The notes beneath the pieces were generated by a model. It saw only the letters and a program-made list of their open reading frames with translations. It was not told where the DNA came from and searched no databases. A DNA stretch of 39,706 nucleotides from a virus (lineage: Duplodnaviria; Heunggongvirae; Uroviricota; Caudoviricetes), in the IMG/VR virus record IMGVR_UViG_3300033146_002139, positions 1 to 39,706 of that record; one strand, written 5' to 3'. Each line of letters starts with the position of its first letter. Position 1 is the first letter of the stretch. Both the position numbers and the translations under genes were made by a program. Positions 951 through 33,509 of this stretch are shown here, in pieces.

Positions 951-1427
951 TTACATAAAATCTTTTTCTTCAAATTCTTTTTCCCACCATATATCTTTTA
1001 CAGCACCATTAGTAACTCTTTCCAATATGCCTCCTATTCGTCTTGATGGTAATTCTCCATTTTCAATTTGAGAAAGTTTTGTTATTGATACTTTTGTAAG
1101 TAATTCTAGTTGCCTAATTGGCATTTTTTGTCTATCTCTCCATAGTCTTAGGATTTCTCCTACAAATAATTCTTCTGAAAGAGAAGGGGTTAGCCAATCG
1201 TTAGCCGCCAAAACCATTCTATACTTTCCTTCAATAGCTAATTCTTTCGATAAAAAGAATAGGATTTTTCTGTGATATGATTTTGGCTTTGTTATTCCTT
1301 GCATCCACATAGATACTGCGTTGTCACTAATACTGCTACCCATAACTTCTACTATATCTTTATATTGAACACCTGTTCTTTTTCTCCAGATTCGAAACTT
1401 TTCACTTGCTGATACTTTATACTGCAT
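951..1427 (-). CDS. XRE-family regulator with two HTH domains
   Basis: Two HTH_3-like repeats: FRIWRKRTGVQY..AVSMWMQGITKP and LRLWRDRQKMPIRQL..KLSQIENGELP. Confidence 0.75.
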   Translation of the reverse strand: MQYKVSASEKFRIWRKRTGVQYKDIVEVMGSSISDNAVSMWMQGITKPKSYHRKILFFLSKELAIEGKYRMVLAANDWLTPSLSEELFVGEILRLWRDRQKMPIRQLELLTKVSITKLSQIENGELPSRRIGGILERVTNGAVKDIWWEKEFEEKDFM

Positions 1428-8262: not shown

Positions 8263-8292
8263 AATTTCTCCTAACTAATTTACTGGTCGGCA

Positions 8293-8487
8293 TCAAGTAA
8301 TTGGTTTTTTTGTTTCCCTTATCTCCCACCCTTCGTATTTCATAGCCCAATTTGCTGACTGAGATTGGCTTTGTTGCAATTTAAGGCAACACTTGAAGTG
8401 GCTGCCCTCAAAAACAAATCTATCGTTTTGATATAGAAAATAAGTCTGTTCTTGTTCGTTTTCTTTTTTAATAGGTCTGTTTTCCAT
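8293..8487 (-). CDS. Hypothetical protein
   Basis: ORF with GGAG RBS. Confidence 0.7.
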   Translation of the reverse strand: MENRPIKKENEQEQTYFLYQNDRFVFEGSHFKCCLKLQQSQSQSANWAMKYEGWEIRETKKPIT

Positions 8488-9020
8488 TATGCTTCTCCAT
8501 CAATGAATAACTTCGAATTAAAACTTAAAACTTGATAGTGTTTGTCTAATTTTCTCAAAGCTGAAAGTTTTTGAATTATTTGATTTTTAAGCACTAGAGC
8601 TTCATCGTATTTCTCGTTCCATCTCGTGCTTTGTAGTTCTTTATGTACGGTCTCAAGAGTAAATGATTGGTACTCGATATAAGTATGGGTTCTTAATCCG
8701 GAATCTTCCTCTATCTTTTTACCTGTAAACTCAAAATGTTCGTAAGGAATATAAATAACAAATTTTTCTTCTCTTAAATAATCGATTCTTTCTTTGATTA
8801 TAAAAGTTTTCCCATCAAGTTTAACTTTTGTTCTTGATATTATTTTCGGGACTTCTAATGTGTTGTGCTGATTAAAAGCACCACCAAACCACCTTACACT
8901 AAATAGAACATTTTGTTCTTTTTGAGAATAAAGGCTTATGTGATAAATTTCTTTGTCTCCAAAGAAGAATGGATTGTGCGAGTTAACTTTTCTTGCTAAG
9001 ACGGAGTTTTCTTTCTTCAT
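8487..9020 (-). CDS. Hypothetical protein
   Basis: 177-aa ORF with GGAG RBS. Confidence 0.75.
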   Translation of the reverse strand: MKKENSVLARKVNSHNPFFFGDKEIYHISLYSQKEQNVLFSVRWFGGAFNQHNTLEVPKIISRTKVKLDGKTFIIKERIDYLREEKFVIYIPYEHFEFTGKKIEEDSGLRTHTYIEYQSFTLETVHKELQSTRWNEKYDEALVLKNQIIQKLSALRKLDKHYQVLSFNSKLFIDGEA

Positions 9021-9267
9021 CTATTATCTCCAAATATTCTTTAAAGGTTGTTGGCTTATTTGGAACATACGTGTCTTTATCGTAGTTTAATATAAAAACA
9101 CATCCAGAGGTTATTACCTTGTAGTTGCTAGAAGTAGTGTTTATTACACTGTTTAGCCCATTCCAATAACAAGCTACCCTCGAATATTCTCCGTTAGGAT
9201 AATCACCTTTTACTAAGAATAATCCCGAGTCTAAGAATTCCTCTATATTGTCTATTAGTACCTTCAT
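8983..9267 (-). CDS. Hypothetical protein
   Basis: Start MKVLID after GAGGTG. Confidence 0.7.
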   Translation of the reverse strand: MKVLIDNIEEFLDSGLFLVKGDYPNGEYSRVACYWNGLNSVINTTSSNYKVITSGCVFILNYDKDTYVPNKPTTFKEYLEIIDEERKLRLSKKS

Positions 9268-9276
9268 AAACACCTC

Positions 9277-9570
9277 TTAAATTTCAGATTTTTTTACAAA
9301 TTGACCATGCATAAATATATGGCTTTCATCAGGATATCCTTCTTCATCAATGGATAGCCCACAATAGTCTAGTATTTGTTCTTGTTGTGATAATGTCAGT
9401 TCTTTTGGTAGTTTTGTTAATTCAAAAGTCTTAACTACTCTTCCTGCTCCACCACAATCTTCAGACACTGCAATTAAATTCCTTGTTCCGTTAAAATAAA
9501 TATTGTACACTCTTAAGTCTACATCTTCTATTCCTAACTCTATATCTTCTAGTATTATATTGTAGTTCAT
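9277..9570 (-). CDS. Hypothetical protein
   Basis: ORF with GAGG RBS. Confidence 0.75.
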   Translation of the reverse strand: MNYNIILEDIELGIEDVDLRVYNIYFNGTRNLIAVSEDCGGAGRVVKTFELTKLPKELTLSQQEQILDYCGLSIDEEGYPDESHIFMHGQFVKKSEI

Positions 9571-9573
9571 ACA

Positions 9574-9780
9574 TTACCTCTTGTTTAATTGCCATTCATT
9601 ATATCCAACATTAAAAGCTATTGGGTCATGTTTTCTTACAGCTTTACCATATTCTTGTAACCACATAGCTGACATTCTAATAACACCACCTATAATCCAT
9701 TCATCTGAGCCTTGTGGTGGAGATAGCTCGTTAAGAAACTTTTCATATTCTTTTTTAGTGTATTTCAAGATTACCTCCAT
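9574..9780 (-). CDS. Hypothetical phage protein
   Basis: Likely start MEVILK; C-terminal YGKAVRKHDPIAFNVGYNEW. Confidence 0.7.
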   Translation of the reverse strand: MEVILKYTKKEYEKFLNELSPPQGSDEWIIGGVIRMSAMWLQEYGKAVRKHDPIAFNVGYNEWQLNKR

Positions 9781-10246
9781 TTTCTTTTTTCCAAGAGGAG
9801 AACTCTTTATCAAAATCTCTCCCATCTTCTTTAAATATTTTTTTTGTTTGTTCTATTATGTTTTGTTCTTGTTTTTGTTTTGCTATTCTTCGTGTCATTA
9901 GTTCAGGATTTGAAATTTCAGCTCTCATTTGTTCCTCTGAGATTCCTGTCATTTCAAATAATGTTTTCTCTATTGTATTAAGAGTTTTTTGTTTTTTCTC
10001 ACTTTCTAACCTATTAAGCAGTCTTTTAAGTCTCCATACTTCACAAGCTGATACAAGGATTGACCCTTTGCTGTCATTTGCCTTATCATATTCCCCATCA
10101 ATGTAATATGTGTTATTTGCAGTTATTGATGTAAGCATACAATACTTATCTGCTGAAGTCCAATTTAAAGGAGTTTCTAAAAAATAAGTAACATCCTCTT
10201 CTAGGAAGGGTAATATTTTAGCAACTAATTCTTGTTTTTCATTCAT
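9755..10246 (-). CDS. Hypothetical protein
   Basis: 163-aa ORF with GGAG RBS. Confidence 0.75.
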   Translation of the reverse strand: MNEKQELVAKILPFLEEDVTYFLETPLNWTSADKYCMLTSITANNTYYIDGEYDKANDSKGSILVSACEVWRLKRLLNRLESEKKQKTLNTIEKTLFEMTGISEEQMRAEISNPELMTRRIAKQKQEQNIIEQTKKIFKEDGRDFDKEFSSWKKENGGNLEIH

Positions 10247-10655
10247 CTTTATCTCCGATAAGGTCTAATTCAAATTTATTAACATTGTCGTATAAAGAGT
10301 TTCCTTCTTCATCCAACACTTCTATAGTGGGTTGGTTATGATTTTCTGAAGGACTTAATGTTTCTACTGTTTCAAATAGTATCTCAGAGCTGTTTACGGT
10401 TTCACAATCAACAGCAATTAACACTGCTTCTTCGTTTGAGTCGGCTGAAACCCTTACGGTATCTCTTTCCCATATTGTCACTTTTCTATCAACAAAGATG
10501 GTGTGTATTTTTTTCCAAACTGGTTGGAACAAGCTCGGACCGATAATACAAGGAAGCTCTTTGTTGTTTTTGTCGTTAGTAAGACAACCATCTTCAAGAC
10601 TTTTGTTTTTATAGCATTCGTTGCAGTGCCACTTATATCCACTTTGACAACCCAT
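10239..10655 (-). CDS. Hypothetical protein
   Basis: ORF with AGGAG RBS. Confidence 0.75.
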   Translation of the reverse strand: MGCQSGYKWHCNECYKNKSLEDGCLTNDKNNKELPCIIGPSLFQPVWKKIHTIFVDRKVTIWERDTVRVSADSNEEAVLIAVDCETVNSSEILFETVETLSPSENHNQPTIEVLDEEGNSLYDNVNKFELDLIGDKDE

Positions 10656-10665
10656 TTTCTCTCCT

Positions 10666-11193
10666 TTATTTAGGCTCTATGTCTGCTAAATACTCATCTG
10701 TTTCACATATAGGGCATCCATTTCCAAATCCATCTTTATCTTTAAATGGTACCAAATCTTCTTCTTCGCCTCGGAATTCGCAATTACAACATTTAACGGT
10801 GTAATTAACGGTACTACAGTATTCATCAAGATAAAAGTCTATAGTATCCCAGGTAATTCCGTATTCACTATCAGCTTTTCTAATCATCGTATGTAGTGCT
10901 TCTTCAAATTTTGACTCATCGTATACATCTTCCCATAATACTTTTGAACCTGATAACCTGTCTATGGCTCTACTTTTGAAGTCTTCAGTACTCCATCCTA
11001 AATCCATAATTCCATTTCTACGGTCGTCAATAAGTCTAACTTCTTCTTCAGTGAGCGTTAGTTTTGTCAATGCGTCGTACATTCCCCATCCTTGGGCTTG
11101 TTCCTTGCTATTACCACCTTTGATTAGTTCATCAGCACATTCTTTAACATATGCAATCTTTTCGGTTAAACTACTCATTTGCCACCTCGACAT
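10666..11193 (-). CDS. Hypothetical protein with C-terminal zinc ribbon
   Basis: CCNC...CPIC. Confidence 0.75.
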   Translation of the reverse strand: MSRWQMSSLTEKIAYVKECADELIKGGNSKEQAQGWGMYDALTKLTLTEEEVRLIDDRRNGIMDLGWSTEDFKSRAIDRLSGSKVLWEDVYDESKFEEALHTMIRKADSEYGITWDTIDFYLDEYCSTVNYTVKCCNCEFRGEEEDLVPFKDKDGFGNGCPICETDEYLADIEPK

Positions 11194-11204
11194 AATTTAA
11201 TGGT

Positions 11205-11411
11205 TTATTTAATTTCTATTGTATAGCTTGTTATTACGAAGTCTGCATCATCATCTTCGTTGCTATTTTTTAAATCTTCCTCACTTAGCCCATAAAAGAA
11301 AAAATCATCATCGTGATATCCTTCTGGAGTATGGTCATATTCAGCTATGAGCATATCATTAAACTCGAAGCCATCGTCTTTAAAATAACCGTCTACTTTA
11401 AATATTTTCAT
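11205..11411 (-). CDS. Small acidic hypothetical protein
   Basis: ORF with AGGAG RBS; D/E-rich. Confidence 0.75.
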   Translation of the reverse strand: MKIFKVDGYFKDDGFEFNDMLIAEYDHTPEGYHDDDFFFYGLSEEDLKNSNEDDDADFVITSYTIEIK

Positions 11412-11700
11412 TTTGTTCTCCTAAGGCTCTTTCTGCAAAACTCTCTACAATAGGATGTTCTCCATATGTTGACAACGAGTTCATTGCAGTATTAAGTGCT
11501 GCAGTTAATAACAATTCCTTTTTATTGGGATTGTATTCTTTATATTTCCTATGTGTTACTTTCCACATTGCAGGAGCAACATTGTATTGAAACAGCCCTA
11601 TAAGATGTTTTGTTTCTTCGGTGTCTAATAAAGCAAATAATCTTTTTCTTGCTTTTTCTAAAGCATCTATATCATCTTGACTAACAATAACTTCTTTCAT
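11398..11700 (-). CDS. Hypothetical protein
   Basis: ORF with GAGGTG RBS. Confidence 0.75.
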   Translation of the reverse strand: MKEVIVSQDDIDALEKARKRLFALLDTEETKHLIGLFQYNVAPAMWKVTHRKYKEYNPNKKELLLTAALNTAMNSLSTYGEHPIVESFAERALGEQNENI

Positions 11701-11710
11701 AATGCACCTC

Positions 11711-11959
11711 TTAATCTATTTCAATATATTTAGGTTTTTCTTTTCTCCAATTAAGTTTTGGCTCTAAGACTATAACATCTTCAATATTTACCTCAGAGAG
11801 CTTTCTTTCAGTGAATACATCGCTGTTATAGACATACCCATTGTCATCGTCTTCGTAAATACCATCTACAAAAGTATCCATATATGCAGTGTCATCAACA
11901 AGAACTTTATAATTATTGTCGTGATAATCCTCTAATTTTCTAGCTTCATCTTTTGTCAT
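11711..11959 (-). CDS. Hypothetical acidic protein
   Basis: ORF with GGGGG RBS. Confidence 0.75.
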   Translation of the reverse strand: MTKDEARKLEDYHDNNYKVLVDDTAYMDTFVDGIYEDDDNGYVYNSDVFTERKLSEVNIEDVIVLEPKLNWRKEKPKYIEID

Positions 11960-11996
11960 AATACCCCCGTTTAGTGTTGTTTAATATTATTCTAAA

Positions 11997-12069
11997 TCCA
12001 GCAGACAGAATCGAACTGTCGATTGTGTAAAAAATTTAACCTTACACTTCCCACCAGTGGAATACTGGA
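11997..12069 (-). ncRNA. tRNA-like element (non-canonical D and anticodon arms)
   Basis: Minus strand TCCAGTA-TTCCACTGGTGGGAA-GTGTAAGG TTAAATT TTTTACAC-AATC-GACAG TTCGATT CTGTC-TGCTGGA: 7-bp acceptor and perfect T arm. Confidence 0.7.
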
Positions 12070-12075
12070 ACATTA

Positions 12076-12690
12076 TTATTTTTTCATAAAATCTGTAATT
12101 AATTTCAACATTTTTTCTCTATGAAACTTAAACGCATAATACTCATTAATCTTTCCTAACAACTTTCCGAACATAAGTTTATTGTGATTTTCGCAATCAT
12201 TATCCGATTCATGAAGCATTAACACCTCTCTAATAATAACATCGTCTTTCGAATCATAGAGTATTCCTGTAGTAAGGTATCCATCAAACTTAATCCCAAT
12301 ATAAACATTCTTGTACTGCTCAATAGGATAGTCTTGATTAAGCAGTACTTTTACTAGTTCAGTATCCCTTTTATCAATTCTGAGTAATTCTTTAGAATCC
12401 TCTATTGTAGAGGCATTCAGTTTTTTGATATAATCTTTATTCGCCTTTATCTTACTCATCAGCTCTGCACTATTCATATTTCCCTTTGTAAAAGTGATTA
12501 GTGCAGTTTCAGTACTAATCCTTTTAAGGTTAGCCATAGTCTTCTCGAATATTTTAGCCTTAGTTAGTTTTAGTGTTTCTGCCTTTATTGACTTTTCCAA
12601 GGCAATCTTTTTGTTGTTATTTACCACAAACTTTTTCAAAGAGTAAAAGTCTTTTCCAAAGTTTTCTTTCATTTTGTCTTTTAATGACAT
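12076..12690 (-). CDS. Hypothetical protein
   Basis: 204-aa ORF with AGGAG RBS. Confidence 0.8.
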   Translation of the reverse strand: MSLKDKMKENFGKDFYSLKKFVVNNNKKIALEKSIKAETLKLTKAKIFEKTMANLKRISTETALITFTKGNMNSAELMSKIKANKDYIKKLNASTIEDSKELLRIDKRDTELVKVLLNQDYPIEQYKNVYIGIKFDGYLTTGILYDSKDDVIIREVLMLHESDNDCENHNKLMFGKLLGKINEYYAFKFHREKMLKLITDFMKK

Positions 12691-12705
12691 TTGAAGCTCC
12701 TTTTT

Positions 12706-12909
12706 TTAAATTGCAATAAAATGTTTTATATTAGGTTTATCTAGGCTATTCCTTTCCTCTTCAGTAACCTTGCCTATTAACAACCCGCCTACAAATACGA
12801 GAATATCATTTCCCTCGATTTTAGTTTGGTTGTTTTTTTTTGCGAATATAAAATCTCTATACTCACTGCTGTTTACTTCTTTCAATTCTAAAACACTGTT
12901 CGTATTCAT
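12706..12909 (-). CDS. Hypothetical protein
   Basis: ORF with GGGAG RBS. Confidence 0.7.
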   Translation of the reverse strand: MNTNSVLELKEVNSSEYRDFIFAKKNNQTKIEGNDILVFVGGLLIGKVTEEERNSLDKPNIKHFIAI

Positions 12910-12918
12910 AATACTCCC

Positions 12919-13068
12919 TTATTTTAGTTGGTCGGCATAATTTAACAGAGTTATCTGTTCTAATTTTGATGATAATATCCCTCTTATAGAAGCTTTCTCT
13001 ATCCATACATCTTTATGAGGAAGTTTACTATATTCGTAGTATTCGTTTTTCAAATCTTCAATAGACAT
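12919..13068 (-). CDS. Small hypothetical protein
   Basis: Probable start MSIEDLK directly after the upstream stop. Confidence 0.55.
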   Translation of the reverse strand: MSIEDLKNEYYEYSKLPHKDVWIEKASIRGILSSKLEQITLLNYADQLK

Positions 13069-13069
13069 T

Positions 13070-13312
13070 TTAAGCCATTTCGCTATTGGGGCTGGTGCTT
13101 TCATCTGCAACCCCCCTACTGCATATCGCATCAAGAAAACCATGGATTTCTTCGGCAACACTACTGTAAGGTATCCACTTCATAATACTTTCAGGTAAGA
13201 CCTCGACCTTGACGGCTAGCTTCCTACTAAAATCTATTTCCTGTATTTGCAAAACATCTCTACCGTCTCTGATAGAGAAATACTTTATCTCTTTGCTGAT
13301 GTCAACTTCCAT
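13070..13312 (-). CDS. Hypothetical protein
   Basis: Start MEVDISK after GAGGAGAAAGG. Confidence 0.65.
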   Translation of the reverse strand: MEVDISKEIKYFSIRDGRDVLQIQEIDFSRKLAVKVEVLPESIMKWIPYSSVAEEIHGFLDAICSRGVADESTSPNSEMA

Positions 13313-13470
13313 TATCCTTTCTCCTCTAGTTTTACAGGTACTACTGAATACCAAATTATTTCTCCAGGATTTAATTCATCTGCAACACTGAATGTTAATG
13401 TTGTGTCTGCAAACTTAATCTCTAATACTTCGTATCCGAACAATTCTTCTATCATCTTAAAATAAGTCAT
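13312..13470 (-). CDS. Small hypothetical protein (52 aa)
   Basis: Manual translation MTYFKMIEELFGYEVLEIKF...; GGAGG RBS; TAATG coupling to the next gene. Confidence 0.65.
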   Translation of the reverse strand: MTYFKMIEELFGYEVLEIKFADTTLTFSVADELNPGEIIWYSVVPVKLEEKG

Positions 13471-13781
13471 TTAATTCCTCCGGTAAGTTAATCCTATAAC
13501 GGATACCTTTCACTAAAAGATACCCGGTATAACATTCTCTTATATTTTATCTTCTTTATTATATAATTAATTATAGTGGTGTTTCACTTATCTACCAGCT
13601 TAGTGTTACCCACGCATAAGCACCTCAATTTATAACGAACATATTGCTGTTCAATCGGAACATAGTAATTTCTCCTACTACCGCTTAGGAGCGTACTACT
13701 TGCCACGTTCGTTGTTAGTTATTAGTTTGTGTTCTGTTACTGATTTTTTAATATTTCTATCGTTATCATACAGTCCTCTCT

Positions 13782-13919
13782 TTACCAAAATTCAACATTG
13801 TTAGGTAGTCTTTCAACTCCTAACCATTTTCTGACAAAAGCTTTTGCATCTTTCTTGTTCATTTTAACTGGAAGTGACATTGCATATACATCACCTGGAA
13901 GCATAAAGTAACCTATCAT
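13782..13919 (-). CDS. Small hypothetical protein (45 aa)
   Basis: MIGYFMLPGDVYAM...WLGVERLPNNVEFW; GGAGG RBS. Confidence 0.6.
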   Translation of the reverse strand: MIGYFMLPGDVYAMSLPVKMNKKDAKAFVRKWLGVERLPNNVEFW

Positions 13920-14377
13920 TCTAACCTCCTTTTGTCTTCGTAAGAGTAAAAGTCAATCAATTCTTTTGTAAATATTATATGGTCAAGTATTGTGATATTT
14001 AACAGATTCCCTGCTTTGACAAGTATAGAGGTTATATTGTCATCATTAGGAGATGGTGTTGTTTCTCCTCCGGGATGATTGTGGCATATAATTATCCCGG
14101 CTGCTGAATGTATGAAAGCAGGTTTGAATACTTCTCTTGTATGTACTAATGATGCTGTTAAATGACCAATGCTAATTACTTCTGAATGTATTATTTTATT
14201 TTTACTGTTCAGATATAAGCCTATAAAATGTTCTTTGTTATCATCTGTAATTAGATTGTTTGCAGTCTTTACAAATTCTATAACATCCTTTGGTTCTCGA
14301 ATGCTACTTGATTGATTAGCTTCTAATTTATCAATATATTTTAGCAATTCTTTTTTTGTCCAATTTTTCATGACCAC
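13916..14377 (-). CDS. radC: RadC-like JAB-domain protein
   Basis: KEHF...LNSKN...ISIGHL.ASLVHTREVFK.A....AAGIIICHNHPGG...PSPND..IT..L..AG.LL.I.ILDHII. Confidence 0.92.
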   Translation of the reverse strand: MVMKNWTKKELLKYIDKLEANQSSSIREPKDVIEFVKTANNLITDDNKEHFIGLYLNSKNKIIHSEVISIGHLTASLVHTREVFKPAFIHSAAGIIICHNHPGGETTPSPNDDNITSILVKAGNLLNITILDHIIFTKELIDFYSYEDKRRLE

Positions 14378-14437
14378 TCCTATAATTTGATAGAACTTTT
14401 CTCCATCACTTTAGTATTTCTTTGCCCATCCGGGATA

Positions 14438-15352
14438 CTAAGCTCTATCTATTTCAACTAACTCTCCATCTATAATAGAGAAGTTTTCACATAAATCTAA
14501 GAAACTTTCCACAACATCATCGCATAGCTTATCGAAAGATTGCACTAACTCAACTCTTTCTTGTAATTCGTACAATTCCCAACCATCAAAGTAATCTTCA
14601 TCATTATCATCTATAGAAGTCATAGATGTAAAAACTTCTTTAAGTGTGCAGTTTATTCTCTCAGGCTCTCCACAAGCACCACATATATTTCCTGTATCTT
14701 CTACGGTAGTGTAGTTTTTTTGAGAACATTCGGTGCAGTGAGACTTATATTGACTGTTTCTTGAGCCTCCAGAATAAAGAACCATATATCCACCACTTCT
14801 TCCGTTAAACCCTACTTGATAAGTAAAGTCCTGTTCTTCTTCCCACTCTCTAATAATATCTCGAATGTAGTCTCCAGTTAAGTCTTCATATATTAACATA
14901 TATGCCGCATCTGGAACATTTGGTATGTTATGCAACTTCACATTATGAGCATAAGATGTCATTCCGTTCCAACTACTCATAGTATCGTATCTAAAATGAT
15001 TAGCAAGAAACTCTATCATCTTTACCCTACTTCTTTTATCCACTTTCAGATAAAATGGATTGCGAACAACAGTCGGCTTTGGTGGGTCGGCATAAATTAT
15101 TGTATTATCCGGGACTTCTATAACTTTATAATTACTATCAAAGTTATATGGAAGACAATTACTAGTAAAACTTCCACCTGCTAATTTAATTCCTAAAGAG
15201 TTAGCTATAGTTATCGCTTTTCTTTGCGAAGTATCAAAGTCATTTATGTTTTTTATTTTAAACACTGTAAAATATTCCTCATTTAAACCAGACTTCTTGT
15301 TCTTTTTTAATTCTTTGTTATCTGCATATAAATAATCATAATGTATGTTCAT
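14438..15352 (-). CDS. Hypothetical phage protein with Zn-finger insert
   Basis: Start MNIHY after GGAG; HFRYDTMSSWNGMTSYAHNVK, GFNGRSGGY, CTEC..CGAC. Confidence 0.8.
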   Translation of the reverse strand: MNIHYDYLYADNKELKKNKKSGLNEEYFTVFKIKNINDFDTSQRKAITIANSLGIKLAGGSFTSNCLPYNFDSNYKVIEVPDNTIIYADPPKPTVVRNPFYLKVDKRSRVKMIEFLANHFRYDTMSSWNGMTSYAHNVKLHNIPNVPDAAYMLIYEDLTGDYIRDIIREWEEEQDFTYQVGFNGRSGGYMVLYSGGSRNSQYKSHCTECSQKNYTTVEDTGNICGACGEPERINCTLKEVFTSMTSIDDNDEDYFDGWELYELQERVELVQSFDKLCDDVVESFLDLCENFSIIDGELVEIDRA

Positions 15353-15356
15353 ATTC

Positions 15357-15575
15357 TTATACTCCACAACATTTTTTGTATTTCTTGCCACTACTACAAG
15401 GACAAGGTTCATTCCTGCCGATTGCTTTTTCAACAGCTCTAGGAGAAACTTTGCTTCTTATTGGATAGTTATTAGATTTGTACTTCTCAGTATTGTATTC
15501 CCTCACAATATCTTTTAGTAAAATATTTAAAGGAACACTCTCACCAATAACGGCAACTTCTTTAGGTCTTTCCAT
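15357..15575 (-). CDS. SEC-C motif protein
   Basis: C-terminal [20 protein letters not shown]. Confidence 0.9.
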
Positions 15576-15578
15576 TTA

Positions 15579-16001
15579 CTACCTCATTTTTACACAATCT
15601 TTTAAAAAGACTCTCAATTCTCCATACTTGAAATATCTACCAAAGTTATCTGCTGATAGATAAATATCAAGCCAATCGGAAAGAGTATGACCGTCTTTTA
15701 CTTTTATTTGAGTTCCAAGACTATTCATCTGAATGTCTAATTGATTGACAGAGTTTATCGCGTAATAACCTTGGCGTTCAAAACCTTCAAAAGCAACATA
15801 TTCAGAAATACTATCAGCCCAATCAGTAAACTCTTGACCTAATTCGTCAAAAGATTTATTTACTGAAGGAGGGTATTTGCTTTCCAATACTTTGCTTAAT
15901 CCATTTGCGTTATTCCATATGGAAGATATTTTCTCTATTGCAATTTCAATATCTTCTATATGTGCTACGACTTTCATTAGAATCTGTTGTTTATCGTTCA
16001 T
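15579..16001 (-). CDS. Hypothetical protein
   Basis: Start MNDKQ after AAAGGAG. Confidence 0.75.
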   Translation of the reverse strand: MNDKQQILMKVVAHIEDIEIAIEKISSIWNNANGLSKVLESKYPPSVNKSFDELGQEFTDWADSISEYVAFEGFERQGYYAINSVNQLDIQMNSLGTQIKVKDGHTLSDWLDIYLSADNFGRYFKYGELRVFLKDCVKMR

Positions 16002-16003
16002 AA

Positions 16004-16252
16004 TCACAACTCCTTTCTATCATACTTACTAATCCAAAGCTCTGAAGCTGATACTAAATCCTCATCATTCCAGATGCTTTCAAAATGTTTTGTAAGCTCC
16101 GAAAATGTTTCATCCATTGGCTTCTCTACAATATCCATTATCTTTGAAACAACAGGCATAATGAATGCCCATCCTGATTTATTCCTGTCAAAGCCGTAAA
16201 AATCTTCCTCATCTTCTTTTATGACCATAAAATTTTCTATTAAAGCAGACAT
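16004..16252 (-). CDS. Hypothetical protein
   Basis: ORF with AAGGA RBS. Confidence 0.7.
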   Translation of the reverse strand: MSALIENFMVIKEDEEDFYGFDRNKSGWAFIMPVVSKIMDIVEKPMDETFSELTKHFESIWNDEDLVSASELWISKYDRKEL

Positions 16253-16263
16253 AATCAATTCCT

Positions 16264-16641
16264 TTATTTATCAAAGAAACTATTTCTCCAAACTTTTTCT
16301 CCAAGTCTTTTGAAATTTTCTTTATTCAACATTATAAACTCATAAGCCTTCTTTAATGAGTTATATGAATTTTCATTACAATTAAACCCAACGGTATTCA
16401 TTTCTCCATACCATACATCAATAATATTTTCTCTATCAGCACCAAATTCTAATAGTTGCTCCTCAGAAAGTTGAATATCAATATATACGGAATTATGAGG
16501 TTTTTTCATAAAACTATAAGGAACAACCTCAGTTAGATACACAGGTATTCCCTCTATAAAGTAAATTTCTCTATTAGAATTTCTGTTAATAAAGAGATTT
16601 TCTATTGTCTGGGACTCGTGCCATTCTTCAAACTTTAACAT
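16264..16641 (-). CDS. Hypothetical protein
   Basis: ORF with AGGAG RBS. Confidence 0.75.
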   Translation of the reverse strand: MLKFEEWHESQTIENLFINRNSNREIYFIEGIPVYLTEVVPYSFMKKPHNSVYIDIQLSEEQLLEFGADRENIIDVWYGEMNTVGFNCNENSYNSLKKAYEFIMLNKENFKRLGEKVWRNSFFDK

Positions 16642-16643
16642 AG

Positions 16644-16961
16644 CTAACTCCTTATAATTTCTAGGTTTTCAAGTTTCCCTGCTATTGACTTTCTTAGTAA
16701 AGTCTTGTTTGGAGCATACATTTCTTCCCAATGTCCATATAGCCTTCTTACTCTATATAGTTTTAAGAATGGCTTGTAGTTATATTCAAACCCTGCTGCT
16801 TTATACACACCTTGTCTTTTTAAATTCTCTAATCCATACGAGAATTTACTACTGTACTTATCTTTTAAAAAGGCTACAGCTTCTTCCTTAGTCTCGGAAG
16901 TTATTCCTGCATCACCTAAGACATTTTCGTTTATTTTTTTTCTTTCTATTTTAAATTTCAT
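16644..16961 (-). CDS. Hypothetical protein (tandem paralog B)
   Basis: GFEYNYKPFLKLY...WEEMYAPNKTLLR, shared with 16951..17271. Confidence 0.8.
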   Translation of the reverse strand: MKFKIERKKINENVLGDAGITSETKEEAVAFLKDKYSSKFSYGLENLKRQGVYKAAGFEYNYKPFLKLYRVRRLYGHWEEMYAPNKTLLRKSIAGKLENLEIIRS

Positions 16962-17271
16962 AAACATTCTCCAATAGGACAATTCTGTCTATTTTTTCCG
17001 AGCAAGCTGTCCTTAATAATTTTCTACTCGGAGCATACATTTCAGTCCAAGTATCATACGTTTTAACAAGATATAGTTTTAGGAATGGCTTATATATATA
17101 TTCAAAGCCGCTAACACGATATGCACCAAATTGTTTCAAACGGTCTATTCCAAAATTAAAAGGGTCGGCATATTTCTCTGCTAAAAATATTGCTACTGTT
17201 CCAGGTGTATCATCAGTTTTTGAGAATACACTCCCATCAATATTGTTGTTGATTTTTATTCTATCTAGCAT
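16951..17271 (-). CDS. Hypothetical protein (tandem paralog A)
   Basis: GFEYIYKPFLKLY...WTEMYAPSRKLLR. Confidence 0.8.
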   Translation of the reverse strand: MLDRIKINNNIDGSVFSKTDDTPGTVAIFLAEKYADPFNFGIDRLKQFGAYRVSGFEYIYKPFLKLYLVKTYDTWTEMYAPSRKLLRTACSEKIDRIVLLENVYEI

Positions 17272-17282
17272 AACAATTTCTC

Positions 17283-17981
17283 CTATTTAAAATCTTTGCC
17301 CATTGTCTTTCTTGTAGTTTTCATACTTTCTTCTTCGTGTACACTAAATGTATACTCATTCAAAAAAACATATCTTATAGGATGTGCTACAATACTCAAG
17401 AAGTATACCTCTCCACTTATTAGGTCGTTGATAGCTACACTATTCACAGTGTTGGCTTGTGGATTATGTGCATTTCCATACACATAGTTAATTAGTTTTC
17501 TGTTAACAAACTTTTTAGCTTCACTATATGTACTAAAAACTTTTGGGGTGAATTCCAATTCTGTCAATTTCGCTGAAGATAAACTCCAAAGAGTTTCTGA
17601 AGCCCAATTTAAGGCTTGACAATTATCTTCTTTATCAAATCTTTGTATGTAAAAATCATTTGACACAGAAACCGTATATCGGTTTTCTTTCCTGATGTCA
17701 ACCAATTTATTCTCTATAATATATTCATCCTCAAGTCTAGAAAACTCTCCCGTCAACTCTTCGTATCTTGAGTAAGTAACAGCGAAGTCTGTTTTGCCAT
17801 CTTCATTCTCAACAACCAAATCAAAAGCATCATTGAGAAGTTTCCTTACTTGACTTTTTGCTAAACATCCTGAAGCAACTACCATGTTTCCATCCATGGC
17901 AATTACTCCCATTTCATTACTAGCTAATTCATTAAATGCTAAGCTGTAATGATTTCCTGGAGCAAACTTTTTCTTATACAT
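17283..17981 (-). CDS. Hypothetical protein
   Basis: 232-aa ORF overlapping the upstream stop. Confidence 0.8.
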   Translation of the reverse strand: MYKKKFAPGNHYSLAFNELASNEMGVIAMDGNMVVASGCLAKSQVRKLLNDAFDLVVENEDGKTDFAVTYSRYEELTGEFSRLEDEYIIENKLVDIRKENRYTVSVSNDFYIQRFDKEDNCQALNWASETLWSLSSAKLTELEFTPKVFSTYSEAKKFVNRKLINYVYGNAHNPQANTVNSVAINDLISGEVYFLSIVAHPIRYVFLNEYTFSVHEEESMKTTRKTMGKDFK

Positions 17982-18867
17982 TTCCCAATTCCCCTATAAT
18001 TTTATCAGCCTTATCTACAGCAGATATTAAAGTTTCCATTCTCATCCCAAGAGCCTTTCCTCTTGACCAAGATTTAACATATAGCTCAGCATTCGTATCT
18101 AAGCCAATACTTTTCATCATTACAAAAGCAAATGAGTGAGCTTCAGTTTCCTTTAGCTCTGAAGTTAAGTCTTGCCTGTCTTTACCAAAGTGCATAAGGT
18201 AATGACCTAATTCGTGCAATAAGACAGGAATCTTACTCTCTACATTAGCATTCGAGTTAACTACTAACTTTTCTCCATCTGTCCAACCACCTCTTGCTAG
18301 TACATCAGGTTTTTCTTCGACCGTAATGTTTTTAGCTTTTAGAGAAGCTCTTAACTTGGCATAGAGGTCGGCATAATTTATCGTATCTTTACCGAATACC
18401 CTCAGCGTGCCATTTGCAGGTAATTCATCGCCTTCTGTGTTCTGTATATCATACACAGTTACAGCCTTAAAGATAGAATATGTATACTCTTTTTTAAGAG
18501 CATCTAATTCTTCTTTACTCATTGATAAAGTTGTTGCTTTTTTTAGCCCATCCCAATTGATTTTCGTCATTGGAGACAATATCTTCAACCCAACACCTTT
18601 CCCACTAACAAATCTACCAAGTGCTTTCCACTTACTAAATGGTGCGAGTTGCGAAATCTCAACCTTACCCATATTCTGGGTCATAGCTAATAATATATTA
18701 TATAGGGAATAAGAGTGAAAACCTTTCACAATCCCTTTCTTTATCCACATCGCATTTGCAATAGTTTCTGGAGTTACCTTAGCAACTCTTTCTTTTAGTT
18801 CTGCAATTGCTTTTTTCGTTTCTTCGGCATATTGCTTTTTATTAAAATTTTTCTTCTTCCAACCCAT
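17974..18867 (-). CDS. ardC: ArdC-like ssDNA-binding/zincin metallopeptidase anti-restriction protein
   Basis: FHSYSLYNILLA..Q....APFSKWKALGRFV.GKG...I..P; FKAVTVYDIQNTEG; LLHELGH...ETEAHS...YVKSW. Confidence 0.85.
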   Translation of the reverse strand: MGWKKKNFNKKQYAEETKKAIAELKERVAKVTPETIANAMWIKKGIVKGFHSYSLYNILLAMTQNMGKVEISQLAPFSKWKALGRFVSGKGVGLKILSPMTKINWDGLKKATTLSMSKEELDALKKEYTYSIFKAVTVYDIQNTEGDELPANGTLRVFGKDTINYADLYAKLRASLKAKNITVEEKPDVLARGGWTDGEKLVVNSNANVESKIPVLLHELGHYLMHFGKDRQDLTSELKETEAHSFAFVMMKSIGLDTNAELYVKSWSRGKALGMRMETLISAVDKADKIIGELGNV

Positions 18868-18886
18868 TTTTAACCCCCGTTAAAAT

Positions 18887-19123
18887 TTATAATTCGTTTA
18901 AAAAACCAACCTCAATAGCGAACATTGTATCATTTTTCGTCATAGCTTCATTTATTTGTCCATCTGTTTCAATCATACTTTCTGAGCCATCTTCGTGCAA
19001 CTCAAAAAGCTCGAAAAGTTCTTCATCAAAAATAATTTGAGCTTCTCTAGCGGGCACTACTTTCCATATAAATTTATCCGTAATAATAGGTCTTGCTCTT
19101 TCCGTAATAATACCTGAAGACAT
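18887..19123 (-). CDS. Hypothetical acidic protein
   Basis: ORF with GGGAG RBS. Confidence 0.75.
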   Translation of the reverse strand: MSSGIITERARPIITDKFIWKVVPAREAQIIFDEELFELFELHEDGSESMIETDGQINEAMTKNDTMFAIEVGFLNEL

Positions 19124-19138
19124 ATAAATCTCCCTTCT

Positions 19139-19363
19139 TTAATGTTTAAATATTTGTTTAATTTCAGTATCTCCAACTATTAGTTCTCTACCCTTAAAGC
19201 AAGGTTCTTTAATAGCTTTTGATAGCCTCAGTGAAGACATAAGTAGCTTAATTCGGTGTCCAAGCCCCTTCATACCTTGATAAGTAAAGTTTACTTTCTC
19301 TACATATAAAGCGCTAAATTCAACACCTTGTACATTGACCTTACATATTCTCTGTGTAGACAT
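19139..19363 (-). CDS. Hypothetical protein
   Basis: ORF whose GGAG RBS lies inside a hairpin. Confidence 0.7.
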   Translation of the reverse strand: MSTQRICKVNVQGVEFSALYVEKVNFTYQGMKGLGHRIKLLMSSLRLSKAIKEPCFKGRELIVGDTEIKQIFKH

Positions 19364-19409
19364 AAGTCTGCTCCGAATTCCCTTTATAAAATTATCCGGA
19401 GCAGACTTA
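19363..19409 (-). promoter_or_regulatory. RBS-sequestering hairpin
   Basis: Perfect 13-bp IR TAAGTCTGCTCCG (19363-75)/CGGAGCAGACTTA (19397-409) covering GGAG and the A of ATG. Confidence 0.75.
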
Positions 19410-19460
19410 GGGGTTGGAAGTCCACTCCAGTGTGTTCGCCCAAATCACTGAACACAATAG

Positions 19461-19510
19461 CAACCAAGTAAGGATACGAACCTCATAGCTCCAAATTCAG
19501 CTCTTGGTCG
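19461..19510 (-). ncRNA. Mini tRNA-like element lacking an anticodon arm
   Basis: CGACCAAG-AGCT GAATTTGG AGCT-A-TGAGG TTCGTAT CCTTA-CTTGGTTG. Confidence 0.65.
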
Positions 19511-19532
19511 TTGGTCGGCATTAGCTATTATT

Positions 19533-23851: not shown

Positions 23852-23880
23852 ATTATAGGTAGATTTTTCTTTAATGTCAA
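23852..23880 (-). promoter_or_regulatory. Perfect consensus sigma70 promoter (major early promoter)
   Basis: TTGACA (23880-75)-N17-TATAAT (23857-52) with an A-rich UP-like region. Confidence 0.9.
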
Positions 23881-23939
23881 GTTTTATTTTTAATTATCTT
23901 TGGTCTTGCCTTGTATCTTGCTATTATTTGGTTATATAC

Positions 23940-24330
23940 AGACTACTAGACTTTAAAAGTATTGTATTATATTGCTATATATCTTGTATCTTACTATTAT
24001 TATATAAGTTAGCTATAATAATCTGGGGTTTAGCTATGGAATGTTGTATATGCTTGTTATTATGATAGTTAGAGTTATAAACTTGTATTTGTTTAGGTTT
24101 ACTTTATACTTTGTGATTTTTTTTTTATTTTTACAAATAGTTTATACTCTAAAGTCTTAATATTTGGTATTTTAAAGCTATATATTAGACTTTAAAATAT
24201 ATTATGATAGTTAGCTTTAGATTGTAGCTATATTGTAGTAAATAGCTTTAAAATAGTGTTTATTTTATAGCTATATTGTAGCTAGAATTTGACCTGGTTT
24301 TTTAACTTAAATTTTAGACTTGTTTTATAT
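23940..24330. repeat. Cluster of short AT-rich direct repeats (possible terminus/pac or ori region)
   Basis: TAGACTTTAAAA x2, TATTATGATAGTTAG x2, TAGCTATATTGTAG x2, many TAGCT. Confidence 0.55.
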
Positions 24331-24654
24331 ATCTATATTCTACCTATATATATAAAGATAGGACGGCTTGGACTGAATGGGACAGGGTAAATTTTACTGT
24401 AATATTTGTAGCTAAATGCGTAATATTACCCTAGTTCGAAAAGCTCATATGAACAAATCCAAGTTAGGCTGTAGTAGAAAGCTAATGAATTATCATTTTC
24501 CCAAAATAGGCAAAAGTTGAATTACCAATATCTGAAATTTAAAAAAAAGAATATTTGACCCTGTTGAACAATATCGACTTTTATCTCTTTAGTTGTTAAT
24601 CAAAGCCAAAAAATAATTGTCTTGTCGTTTGGATATCCATTCGCCCTTTAGCTT

Positions 24655-24682: not shown

Positions 24683-25100
24683 GTGATGCCTTGACACAAA
24701 AGTCCTTGTTTACTACCTCTTTACCCCTTTAAAACGGTTTGACCTTAACTATATACTTAAAGATACATATAAATTCATATGCGGATGTGCCCGTGGGTTT
24801 ATGTTTGTGAACTTAAGTTTAAGAAGACCCTTCAGTATCTTAGGTTTAGGAGGTATTTCTATTATTAGTTTGTAATCCCTACTTACATATCGCTTTTAAC
24901 TCTTAGGAACTTTAAATTATAATAATCTTATAGATTTTATAATTAATATTATATATATATATTTATATTATATATTAATACTTAATAAAGATTATTAATA
25001 ACGTGCGACGCGTAGGGGTAGTCTTCTAACATATTTTTGCCGTTATAGAAAATACTTGACTAAACCGGATATTTTTATAATATTGTATTTGGAGGTGTTT

Positions 25101-25634
25101 ATGAAATACGAATTATACATTACCAAGAAGAAAGCATCAATTAAAGAATTAGATTTAGTTGTTACCGGAGAAGATAGAAATAGCAATATCCGGAGAATTA
25201 TTTTACAGGCTTGCAAAAGAAGAGGCAAAAAGATTACAATACTTTCGCCGTTAAAGAGAATCTACTTTAGCCTGATTAAGGATGGAGATACAGTTGAGCT
25301 TCGTAATTTTAAAAAGCTATACAAAGAGAGATTTGAAATAGTTTTCTCAAAAGAGCTTAACGAGAAGTTTTACAACAGCAGCAAGAAAAACAATAGCTTT
25401 AAGAAAGCGATGCAGATTTATTACAAATCGAAACAGTGGAAACTGAAACGGCAAAAAATTTTAAATCGAGATAAAGGAATTTGTCAAGAATGCGGCGAGA
25501 TTGGAAATACCGTCCACCATTTAACCTACAAAAATTTTAAAAAAGAACAGCCAAAAGATTTAGTCTGCTTATGCAAAAAGTGCCACGATAAAATACATCG
25601 GAATAAATTCAACAAAAGAACGGTAAAAAAATAA
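25101..25634 (+). CDS. HNH endonuclease
   Basis: YYKSKQWKLKRQKILNRDKGICQECG...VHHLTY...LVCLCKKCHDKIH; ATG 25101 after GGAGG. Confidence 0.9.
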   Translation: MKYELYITKKKASIKELDLVVTGEDRNSNIRRIILQACKRRGKKITILSPLKRIYFSLIKDGDTVELRNFKKLYKERFEIVFSKELNEKFYNSSKKNNSFKKAMQIYYKSKQWKLKRQKILNRDKGICQECGEIGNTVHHLTYKNFKKEQPKDLVCLCKKCHDKIHRNKFNKRTVKK

Positions 25635-31513: not shown

Positions 31514-32176
31514 ATGGCGAAAAACGATAGAAAAAATCAAATGTCAAAATATAAGAATTTAGTAAAACATAAACTAGCAAAATTAAGCGCTGGAGATGTA
31601 GACCCTAAGAAAAAAGATGCAGATGACAATTATATTGAATCTACAGAAGAAAGGTTTGGAAAGGGAAATAGTGTAACCCCAAAGCAAAAAGTAAATAGAA
31701 TAAGATACGTAGAAGAAATGATGATAAAAGCGTTTACTACCAGAGAAATAAATTATCATTGTAAGTATGTTTGGGGTCTATCAACTAACAATGCTAAAGA
31801 AATAGTTAAAGAAGCCAGAGCTAATATGAGGCAGGATTTTAGAGAAAATTTTGAAGACGAAGTAGACTGGCATGTCGAAATAAGAAAAAATTTACTAAGA
31901 AAGCACATAGCTTCAGATGGCGACATTAAAAGTTCGATAGGTGTTCTTGATAGTATTGCTAAAATAGAGGGTGTTTACGATAATAAACCTGCAGTAGAAA
32001 TAACTGGAAGTGAATTTGATGTTGCTGCCGAATCTCTAGGAGAAGAAGAAACTCAAAAAATGATTTCCGATATAAGAGTAGGTGATGAAACTGCACTAGA
32101 AAAAGCAAGAGAAGAGTATTACGAAAAAGACGAAAGAAAGAAAAACATAAGCAGAGATGGGCTCGACAAAGAATAA
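31514..32176 (+). CDS. terS: Putative terminase small subunit
   Basis: Lies immediately upstream of and overlaps TerL; helical, with an HTH-like segment. Confidence 0.55.
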   Translation: MAKNDRKNQMSKYKNLVKHKLAKLSAGDVDPKKKDADDNYIESTEERFGKGNSVTPKQKVNRIRYVEEMMIKAFTTREINYHCKYVWGLSTNNAKEIVKEARANMRQDFRENFEDEVDWHVEIRKNLLRKHIASDGDIKSSIGVLDSIAKIEGVYDNKPAVEITGSEFDVAAESLGEEETQKMISDIRVGDETALEKAREEYYEKDERKKNISRDGLDKE

Positions 32177-33509
32177 TAACAGGATAAAAGATATGCAATG
32201 GAGTCCAAAATCAATAGAGGTAATTGCGAAGTGTGACCTTTCAAGAATAACACTTTTAGAAGGTGTTGTTAGGTCATCTAAATCATATACTGCCGATTTT
32301 ATTGTAATCAAAAAACTGTTACCTACAATGCCACCTTGCAATGTACTCATTTCTGGATACAGCTCAGATTCTGCAAGGCAAAATATAATAGCTGAATGGC
32401 AAAAGAAATTAAAGACAGAATTTAAAGAGCACAGAGATAGTAACGGTACTTATTATACTGTCAACATCAAAGGATTACACAACAAAAGATTTTATATTCG
32501 TGGTGGGGGAAAAAATGGTGATGAAAAAGGTATTAAAGGTATTACATTTGGATTGTGGTACGGGGACGAAATAACAGAACATACTGATGATTTTATCCAG
32601 ATGGCGATGACAAGGATGTCGATGTCTTGGTCTAAGGTTGTTTGGACCACCAATCCTGCTGGACCAACAAACTTTATTAAAGTAAATTTTATAGATAAGG
32701 AAAGCGAGAAAAGGGGGTTTTTTCAATCTTTTAAATTCAAGATATATGACAATCCATCTTTAGACGAAAACTATATCCGAAGTTTATATATGAACTTTCA
32801 TGGAGTTTTTAGAGAAAGAAATATATTCGGTAAGTGGGTGGCTGCTGAAGGACATATCTTCAATATGCTTGACGACGGCAATAAAACCGATTATATTCCT
32901 ACAGACCCAGAAAAAATATACATTGGGGTTGATTATGGAACTTCCAATATGACTGTGTTTTTGAAAGTATATGTTGAAAGAGGAGTATCTTATATTGTAG
33001 ACGAGTACGAACACTCAGGGATGGAATCTGCAAATGTAAAAACACCTGCGGATTATGTTGATGATTTGAAATACTTCATAGGCAAGGACTTTGCAGTAGT
33101 AGATGCTATTTATGCAGACCCTTCGGCAAATTACTTTATAGCTTCTGCAAAAAAAGCCGGAGTAACAAGGTTTAGAAAAGCTAAAAACGATGTGCTAGAA
33201 GGTATTCAGACATTACAAAATGTTTTTGCTAAAAATATAGTAAGATTTAATAGGACAAAAGCGGAGAGTAGTTTTAAACAAATCTCCGGATATAGGTGGG
33301 ACAAAAAAGCTCAAGAACGAGGAGAAGATAAGCCTATAAAAAAAGACGACCACTATGCTGATTGTTTGAGATATATAGTAGAATCTATGGGTAGTAGAGT
33401 TACTATTAAAGCTTTAACTACAGGGCAAAAAAGACAAGCAAATAAACTTACAAAAGAATATAACAAAGAAACTAAAAAAAGAGTTGCTAAACGAATGTCA
33501 CGAGGATAA
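32157..33509 (+). CDS. terL: Terminase large subunit (PBSX-like)
   Basis: Walker A EGVVRSSKS, Walker B WYGDE, TTNP, DNPSL, GVDYG, ADPSA, DDHYADCLRY. Confidence 0.95.
   Translation: MGSTKNNNRIKDMQWSPKSIEVIAKCDLSRITLLEGVVRSSKSYTADFIVIKKLLPTMPPCNVLISGYSSDSARQNIIAEWQKKLKTEFKEHRDSNGTYYTVNIKGLHNKRFYIRGGGKNGDEKGIKGITFGLWYGDEITEHTDDFIQMAMTRMSMSWSKVVWTTNPAGPTNFIKVNFIDKESEKRGFFQSFKFKIYDNPSLDENYIRSLYMNFHGVFRERNIFGKWVAAEGHIFNMLDDGNKTDYIPTDPEKIYIGVDYGTSNMTVFLKVYVERGVSYIVDEYEHSGMESANVKTPADYVDDLKYFIGKDFAVVDAIYADPSANYFIASAKKAGVTRFRKAKNDVLEGIQTLQNVFAKNIVRFNRTKAESSFKQISGYRWDKKAQERGEDKPIKKDDHYADCLRYIVESMGSRVTIKALTTGQKRQANKLTKEYNKETKKRVAKRMSRG

Follow-up and report, generated by a model that had tools for sequence, protein, structure and literature searches.

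A nine-base word confined to one strand and one arm of a large uncultured phage resembles, in its anatomy, the nick sites of tf-like phages

Six copies of one word in the early arm

The IMG/VR record IMGVR_UViG_3300033146_002139 is a complete circular contig of 167.6 kb and 33% G+C from an uncultured phage, and the window analysed here is its first 39.7 kb. A leftward arm of small early genes runs from near 24 kb, opposite a rightward arm with HNH, tRNA, methylase, terminase, portal and protease genes. The early arm holds the subject of this work, the 9-mer ATGCCGACC, for which a preliminary description had reported six co-oriented copies. Our search found exactly those six, all on the minus strand, that is, the sense strand of the early genes (nt, nucleotides; aa, amino acids; ORF, open reading frame; Y-A-D or YAD, Tyr-Ala-Asp):

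19513..19521, minus strand: copy 1, intergenic, 11 nt past a stop codon
18366..18374, minus strand: copy 2, in-frame Y-A-D in a 297-aa gene, just ahead of its M78 peptidase domain (residues 171-250)
17163..17171, minus strand: copy 3, encoding in-frame KYADPF in a gene of 106 aa; the tandem paralog of this gene reads KYSSKF
15085..15093, minus strand: copy 4, in frame, in a linker about 9 residues ahead of the start of stand-alone 217-aa homologs
12930..12938, minus strand: copy 5, final codons of an 80-aa ORF, with the next start 21 nt on
8285..8293, minus strand: copy 6, its first A being the last base of a TGA stop, with the next start 23 nt on

Four copies are coding and two non-coding. 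The preliminary description had placed four inside genes, and Y-A-D is in frame in all four, but the ORF around the copy at 12930 starts with GTG, overlaps a neighbouring ORF and is uncertain as a gene. The gene at 14438-15352, which holds the 15085 copy, is a fusion: about 95 N-terminal residues precede a widespread phage protein of 217 aa, which occurs by itself in homologs.

Mapping the word over all 167.6 kb returned the same six copies, none on the opposite strand and none in the other three transcription arms; the reported absence from the right arm thus holds, and the strand and position map comes down to one strand and one arm. The 7-mer GCCGACC is likewise confined to the six sites and AT precedes it every time, which means that the whole 9-mer is kept. 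The flanks of the copies are not conserved, and no polar halo of one-mismatch variants surrounds the word. An AT-rich stretch had also been described ahead of the copies: the ten bases upstream are indeed 77% AT compared to 67% in the arm, but the difference is marginal (P about 0.07). Two additional GCCGAC hexamers, possibly decayed sites, lie on the same strand inside the cluster, at 15072 (13 nt after the 15085 copy) and at 10440.

The position of the copies can be read against the following features:

23852..23880, minus strand: sigma-70 promoter of perfect sequence (TTGACA-17-TATAAT), directed into the early arm; the sole 12/12 match in 5-24.9 kb
23900..24400, no strand: non-coding, AT-rich switch that separates the arms and contains short degenerate repeats; the genome probably has its physical end here
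25101..25634, plus strand: HNH endonuclease, opening gene of the late arm; candidate nickase by its position
32157..33509, plus strand: terminase large subunit (TerL), PBSX/D6E type; used for map orientation
951..1427, minus strand: HTH_3/HTH_31 (helix-turn-helix) protein; candidate reader if the word were a transcriptional roadblock

We infer that the physical end of the genome lies near 24 kb, at the 23.9-24.4 kb switch. The six copies stand 4.6-15.8 kb from this presumed end, the first 4-5 kb being free of them, and 4.3-15.6 kb downstream of the perfect promoter; on a map oriented by terL they occupy 85.8-92.5%. The gaps between them (1147, 1203, 2078, 2155 and 4645 bp, all five as first described) widen strictly away from the probable end, with a post-hoc chance of 1/60 to 1/120 for such monotone spacing.

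Selection on the nucleotides

First, dinucleotide shuffles predict 0.04 copies compared to the six observed. Second, when all genes were recoded with their codons preserved, the arm held 0.061 copies on average and never more than two in 1000 runs. Third, as a control for look-elsewhere effects, all 9-mers of 40 recoded genomes were scored for clustering; none went beyond -10.1, against -15.3 for ATGCCGACC, which is the top clustered 9-mer genome-wide. For six points placed at random on the circle, the chance of lying within 11.2 kb is about 8e-6.

Codon usage agrees with these figures. Ala-Asp is written GCC-GAC in 5 of 18 cases in the arm and in none of 139 in the rest of the genome. All four in-frame copies read TAT-GCC-GAC-Cnn, while the eight other YAD tripeptides of the genome use other codons, as the preliminary description had noted together with the contrast between KYADPF and KYSSKF in the paralogs. 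The peptide is not the target, since the paralog lacks YAD and the 15085 copy falls in a linker before the part that homologs have by itself. A chance cluster, or a by-product of protein sequence, could appeal to the mere six copies, to the reading frame common to four of them and to the relatives that lack the word, but we hold it to be very improbable given the recoded genomes, the two non-coding copies, and homologs and a paralog without YAD.

ATGCCGACC is therefore a real, selected signal on which selection acts at the level of nucleotides: the exact word is kept on one strand, in this arm only, and most densely towards the probable end. The codon-aware null, the strand exclusivity and the genome map bear out the earlier proposal of a polar cis signal under nucleotide selection, and the observation is stronger than first described. 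Literature matches to the word were unrelated cloning papers. It equals the start of the hepatitis delta virus ribozyme, which we take to be a coincidence.

Two further readings were rejected. For a restriction site 9 bp is long, and the sole hint is that GCCGAC is mildly depleted in the rest of the genome (3 compared to 9.4, P about 0.03). A cassette junction would fit the copies at 8285, 12930, 15085 and 19513 and not the one at 17163; sites at tolerant positions would be expected whatever the model.

Candidate readers of the word

The copies share no RNA fold and are not tied to promoters or predicted terminators, which points to a reader that acts on DNA and is exact for sequence. The closest anatomical match, which was not among the readers first proposed, appears to be the nick sites of tf-like phages. 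In phage tf, 14 nicks were mapped in one strand at an exact 9-mer; variants with a single mismatch mostly escape cutting (PMC3517423). In 61 tf-like phages, the motif crowds the right side of terL-oriented maps, within and between genes (PMC11780129). The tf record itself shows sigma-70 promoters at its end and small early genes; the sites fall on the sense strand of these, both inside genes and in the spaces that separate them, and the terminase is across the end. Counted from the end, the first ten sites occupy 2.1-15.7 kb and their gaps widen (Spearman 0.78). By our cluster statistic the true nick word comes out on top in tf (-12.0), just as ATGCCGACC does here (-15.3). Thus, the word shares with the nick sites of tf, Rembedalsseter and about 60 LUZ24-like phages an exact 9-mer on one strand, namely the sense strand of the early genes, in coding and intergenic positions; it also shares the right-side crowding, the gaps that widen from the end and a similar kilobase scale. 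It differs from them in the word itself (TACT/RTGMC, WACTRTGAC there) and in its unrelated 168-kb phage, so that what can be read from the sequence is a likeness of anatomy and not membership. One-strand sites are also the rule for the nicks of T5 and phiKMV-like phages, and the T5 endonuclease gene adjoins the terminase; the T5 sites (GCGCRGG) and the phiKMV-like nick motifs are absent here.

Because of this match to the mapped sites of tf, we tentatively prefer to read ATGCCGACC as the site recognised by a strand-specific DNA enzyme that the phage encodes; this would most likely be a nickase, leaving six breaks in packaged DNA near the early-gene end. Under such a scheme, the enzyme would cut one strand at the word late in infection, the packaged DNA would carry the six single-strand breaks near that end, and the breaks would be sealed after entry, possibly by the ATP-dependent ligase that the phage encodes. 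More speculatively, the nicks might give this end swivels or hinges and so make it easier to package or eject, and host RNA polymerase might meanwhile transcribe inward from the promoter at 23,880. The presence of HNH nucleases and of the ATP-dependent ligase was counted in favour of nicking. By its position, the HNH protein at 25,101 is a candidate for the enzyme; its gene is missing from the sampled relatives, which also lack the word, a weak co-absence.

Several points weigh against a nickase site. The word differs from all mapped nick motifs, while WACTRTGAC and TACTRTGMC are not enriched here (one copy per strand, the chance level), and neither a T5.153/T5.154 homolog (tblastn, phmmer) nor any protein in common with tf was found. 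The tf-like motif is kept across distant relatives, whereas ATGCCGACC is absent from the arms of the sampled relatives (TerL identity 51-62%): neither the 17 kb nor the 8 kb of early arm available from relatives with TerL identities of 51% and 61% contains it. The copies span 7% of the genome, as opposed to 4.5-80% in tf. The putative nicks are deduced from anatomy and the physical end is placed by inference, and a Chi-like site predicts the same place and the same polarity.

That Chi-like site, of the host, follows closely in strength and is in our view less likely than not. Here, 5'-GGTCGGCAT-3' on the plus strand would be read by RecBCD/AddAB after entry at the end near 24 kb, or at a rightward fork that has broken, and would stop degradation and start recombination at that end. 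An enzyme travelling left from the presumed end would meet the word in the correct orientation, and the G-rich form lies on the leading strand of a fork that starts at the iteron origin (about 130.4 kb) and runs in the direction of the terminase. At that place the genome has a probable initiator with four iterons, that is, four iteron-like repeats spaced by 18-21 bp within a helix-turn-helix initiator-like gene (L005:10399-10480), followed by DnaG and intein-bearing DnaB; a DNA polymerase was not detected in the genome. The word itself does not follow an iteron pattern, its copies being 1-5 kb apart and the true iterons having another sequence. The genome also encodes a Rad52/Sak recombinase and a PD-(D/E)XK exonuclease, with no match for Gam or Mu-Gam, Abc2 not having been searched directly. 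In lambdoids with a recombinase and without a RecBCD inhibitor (Rec+Inh-), Chi concentrates towards cos (PMC3784561). T5 likewise carries 7 Chi on the plus strand and 1 on the minus, two of them within its terminal repeat. The word resembles phage Chi (lambdoid Rec+Inh-, T5, P1) in being polar and, provided that the end is near 24 kb and the origin near 130.4 kb, in having its G-rich strand facing that end and in lying between origin and terminase.

It departs from phage Chi in its 9 bases and in the lack of host excess or skew. Known Chi and Chi-like words have 5-8 bases and none is similar to GGTCGGCAT (PMC8022716). None of about 470 bacterial genomes from three phyla carries it at Chi density, the top one having about 67 per Mb compared to about 200 per Mb for Chi in E. 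coli; as the host has not been identified, this negative is no refutation. The copy-free first 4-5 kb also count against Chi. An apparent replichore skew in genome G459 turned out to be a listing artefact.

An operator or roadblock seems unlikely, yet parts of the layout suit it: a phage DNA-binding protein would bind polar, stoperator-like sites and throttle the long early transcript. The word is asymmetric, exact and co-oriented with transcription, all copies lie in one transcription unit under one strong promoter, and the HTH protein is encoded further down the early arm. The stoperators of L5 are asymmetric and orientation-dependent (PMC9283540), and co-orientation of a repeated asymmetric word is what the copies share with the stoperators of cluster A mycobacteriophages (L5, TipsytheTRex). 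However, those are degenerate 13-mers in short intergenic spaces and number more than twenty, whereas ATGCCGACC is a 9-bp word without degenerate variants, its copies number six, three or four of them within genes, and none stands at a promoter. Moreover, a search of the whole genome found no integrase, resolvase, sigma factor, Gam or Mu-Gam, and because of this the phage is probably lytic; a complete genome without integrase or resolvase does not favour a stoperator.

A non-nuclease protein of DNA entry, packaging or end protection that docks directionally at the word is slightly less likely still. It would account for the confinement to the probable first-entering arm, where RadC/JAB and M78-peptidase genes are also found, and for a density that drops with distance from the end. 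Against it, no candidate protein stands out, the end and the direction of entry are putative, and motifs used for packaging are as a rule found no further than 1-2 kb from the cut and not 4-16 kb away as here.

A signal on the early mRNA, whether an antitermination reload, binding or processing site as first proposed, we consider improbable. All copies are in the sense orientation, three of them close to or at the end of a gene, and a folded element follows the 19513 copy (z -2.2), but some copies have the word base-paired while others leave it unpaired, so that no common hairpin of the nut/put type emerges; there is no match to an Rfam family and no link to predicted terminators, and the other three arms do without the word.

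Relatives, host and meaning

No close relative was found: cultured phages reach at most 36% TerL identity, and scans of IMG/VR and of metagenomes for the pattern returned none. The nearest phages, at 51-66% TerL identity, are partial contigs, the 66% matches being on short ones. A comparable polar word is also absent from the 17-kb and 8-kb arms mentioned above, and the early arms of L097-L099, L014 and L016 contain no comparable GC-rich one. The expected conservation in related phages is thus neither shown nor fairly refuted, these being partial arms of distant relatives. A polarity of TGGTGGTG in the relative L010 is explained by poly-glycine coding. Another relative (L014:1067-18812) has a word of the CCT(A/G)TAG type (CCTATAGAGGCG, CGCCTGTATAGG) in about 11 copies and in both orientations, possibly an operator or hairpin element.

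With regard to the host, GATC occurs 0 times in the genome compared to about 740 expected, and ACGT, GCGC, CGCG, TCTAGA and ATTAAT are depleted too; in the relatives, ACGT is almost wholly avoided and GATC is avoided in some. Since the relatives differ in restriction-site avoidance, their host probably differs as well. TnpB matches point loosely to Bacillota (identity 58% or less), and Atlas and primase searches were uninformative. TnpB-family genes are inserted in the phage at L006:13358-14452 and L004:14002-15183. In a relative (L103:150-3850), what looks by eye like a long tRNA array upstream of the terminase genes is a possible host clue.

Other features of the genome were recorded. RNA-repair and NAD modules (L003:1045-3705, L007:15084-16283 and others) include Ro60/TROVE, RtcB, Thg1, PARP, NAD synthase and NUDIX. 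A tail-type gene ends in tandem units of 33 bp with six copies of a 12-mer (genome 42503-42735, L001). The pair TATAACGG/CCGTTATA is over-represented genome-wide (25 compared to about 5), with one copy at 25039, just upstream of the HNH gene.

The kind of signal is known, and the word is new and comes from an unexplored phage lineage. It may be, although we consider it doubtful, that a nick-site system, or another end-proximal strand-specific one, arose independently in this lineage of large phages, with a new word within 16 kb of one end; alternatively, the word could be a Chi-like sequence, the first from a bacterial lineage not yet in culture, recovered by way of its phage. For 50 years phage DNA has been known to carry programmed nicks, with no function assigned to them (PMC11780129). 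If the word does mark nick sites, six sites near one end, mostly removable by synonymous changes, would make a clean test case and favour a role linked to the end. If it is Chi-like, it predicts a motif of the host and would offer a route to finding that host. If the nick-site or end-proximal system holds, the fixed kilobase scale, alike in one phage of 46 kb and one of 168 kb, would tie its function to the end, in entry or packaging, and not to genome length.

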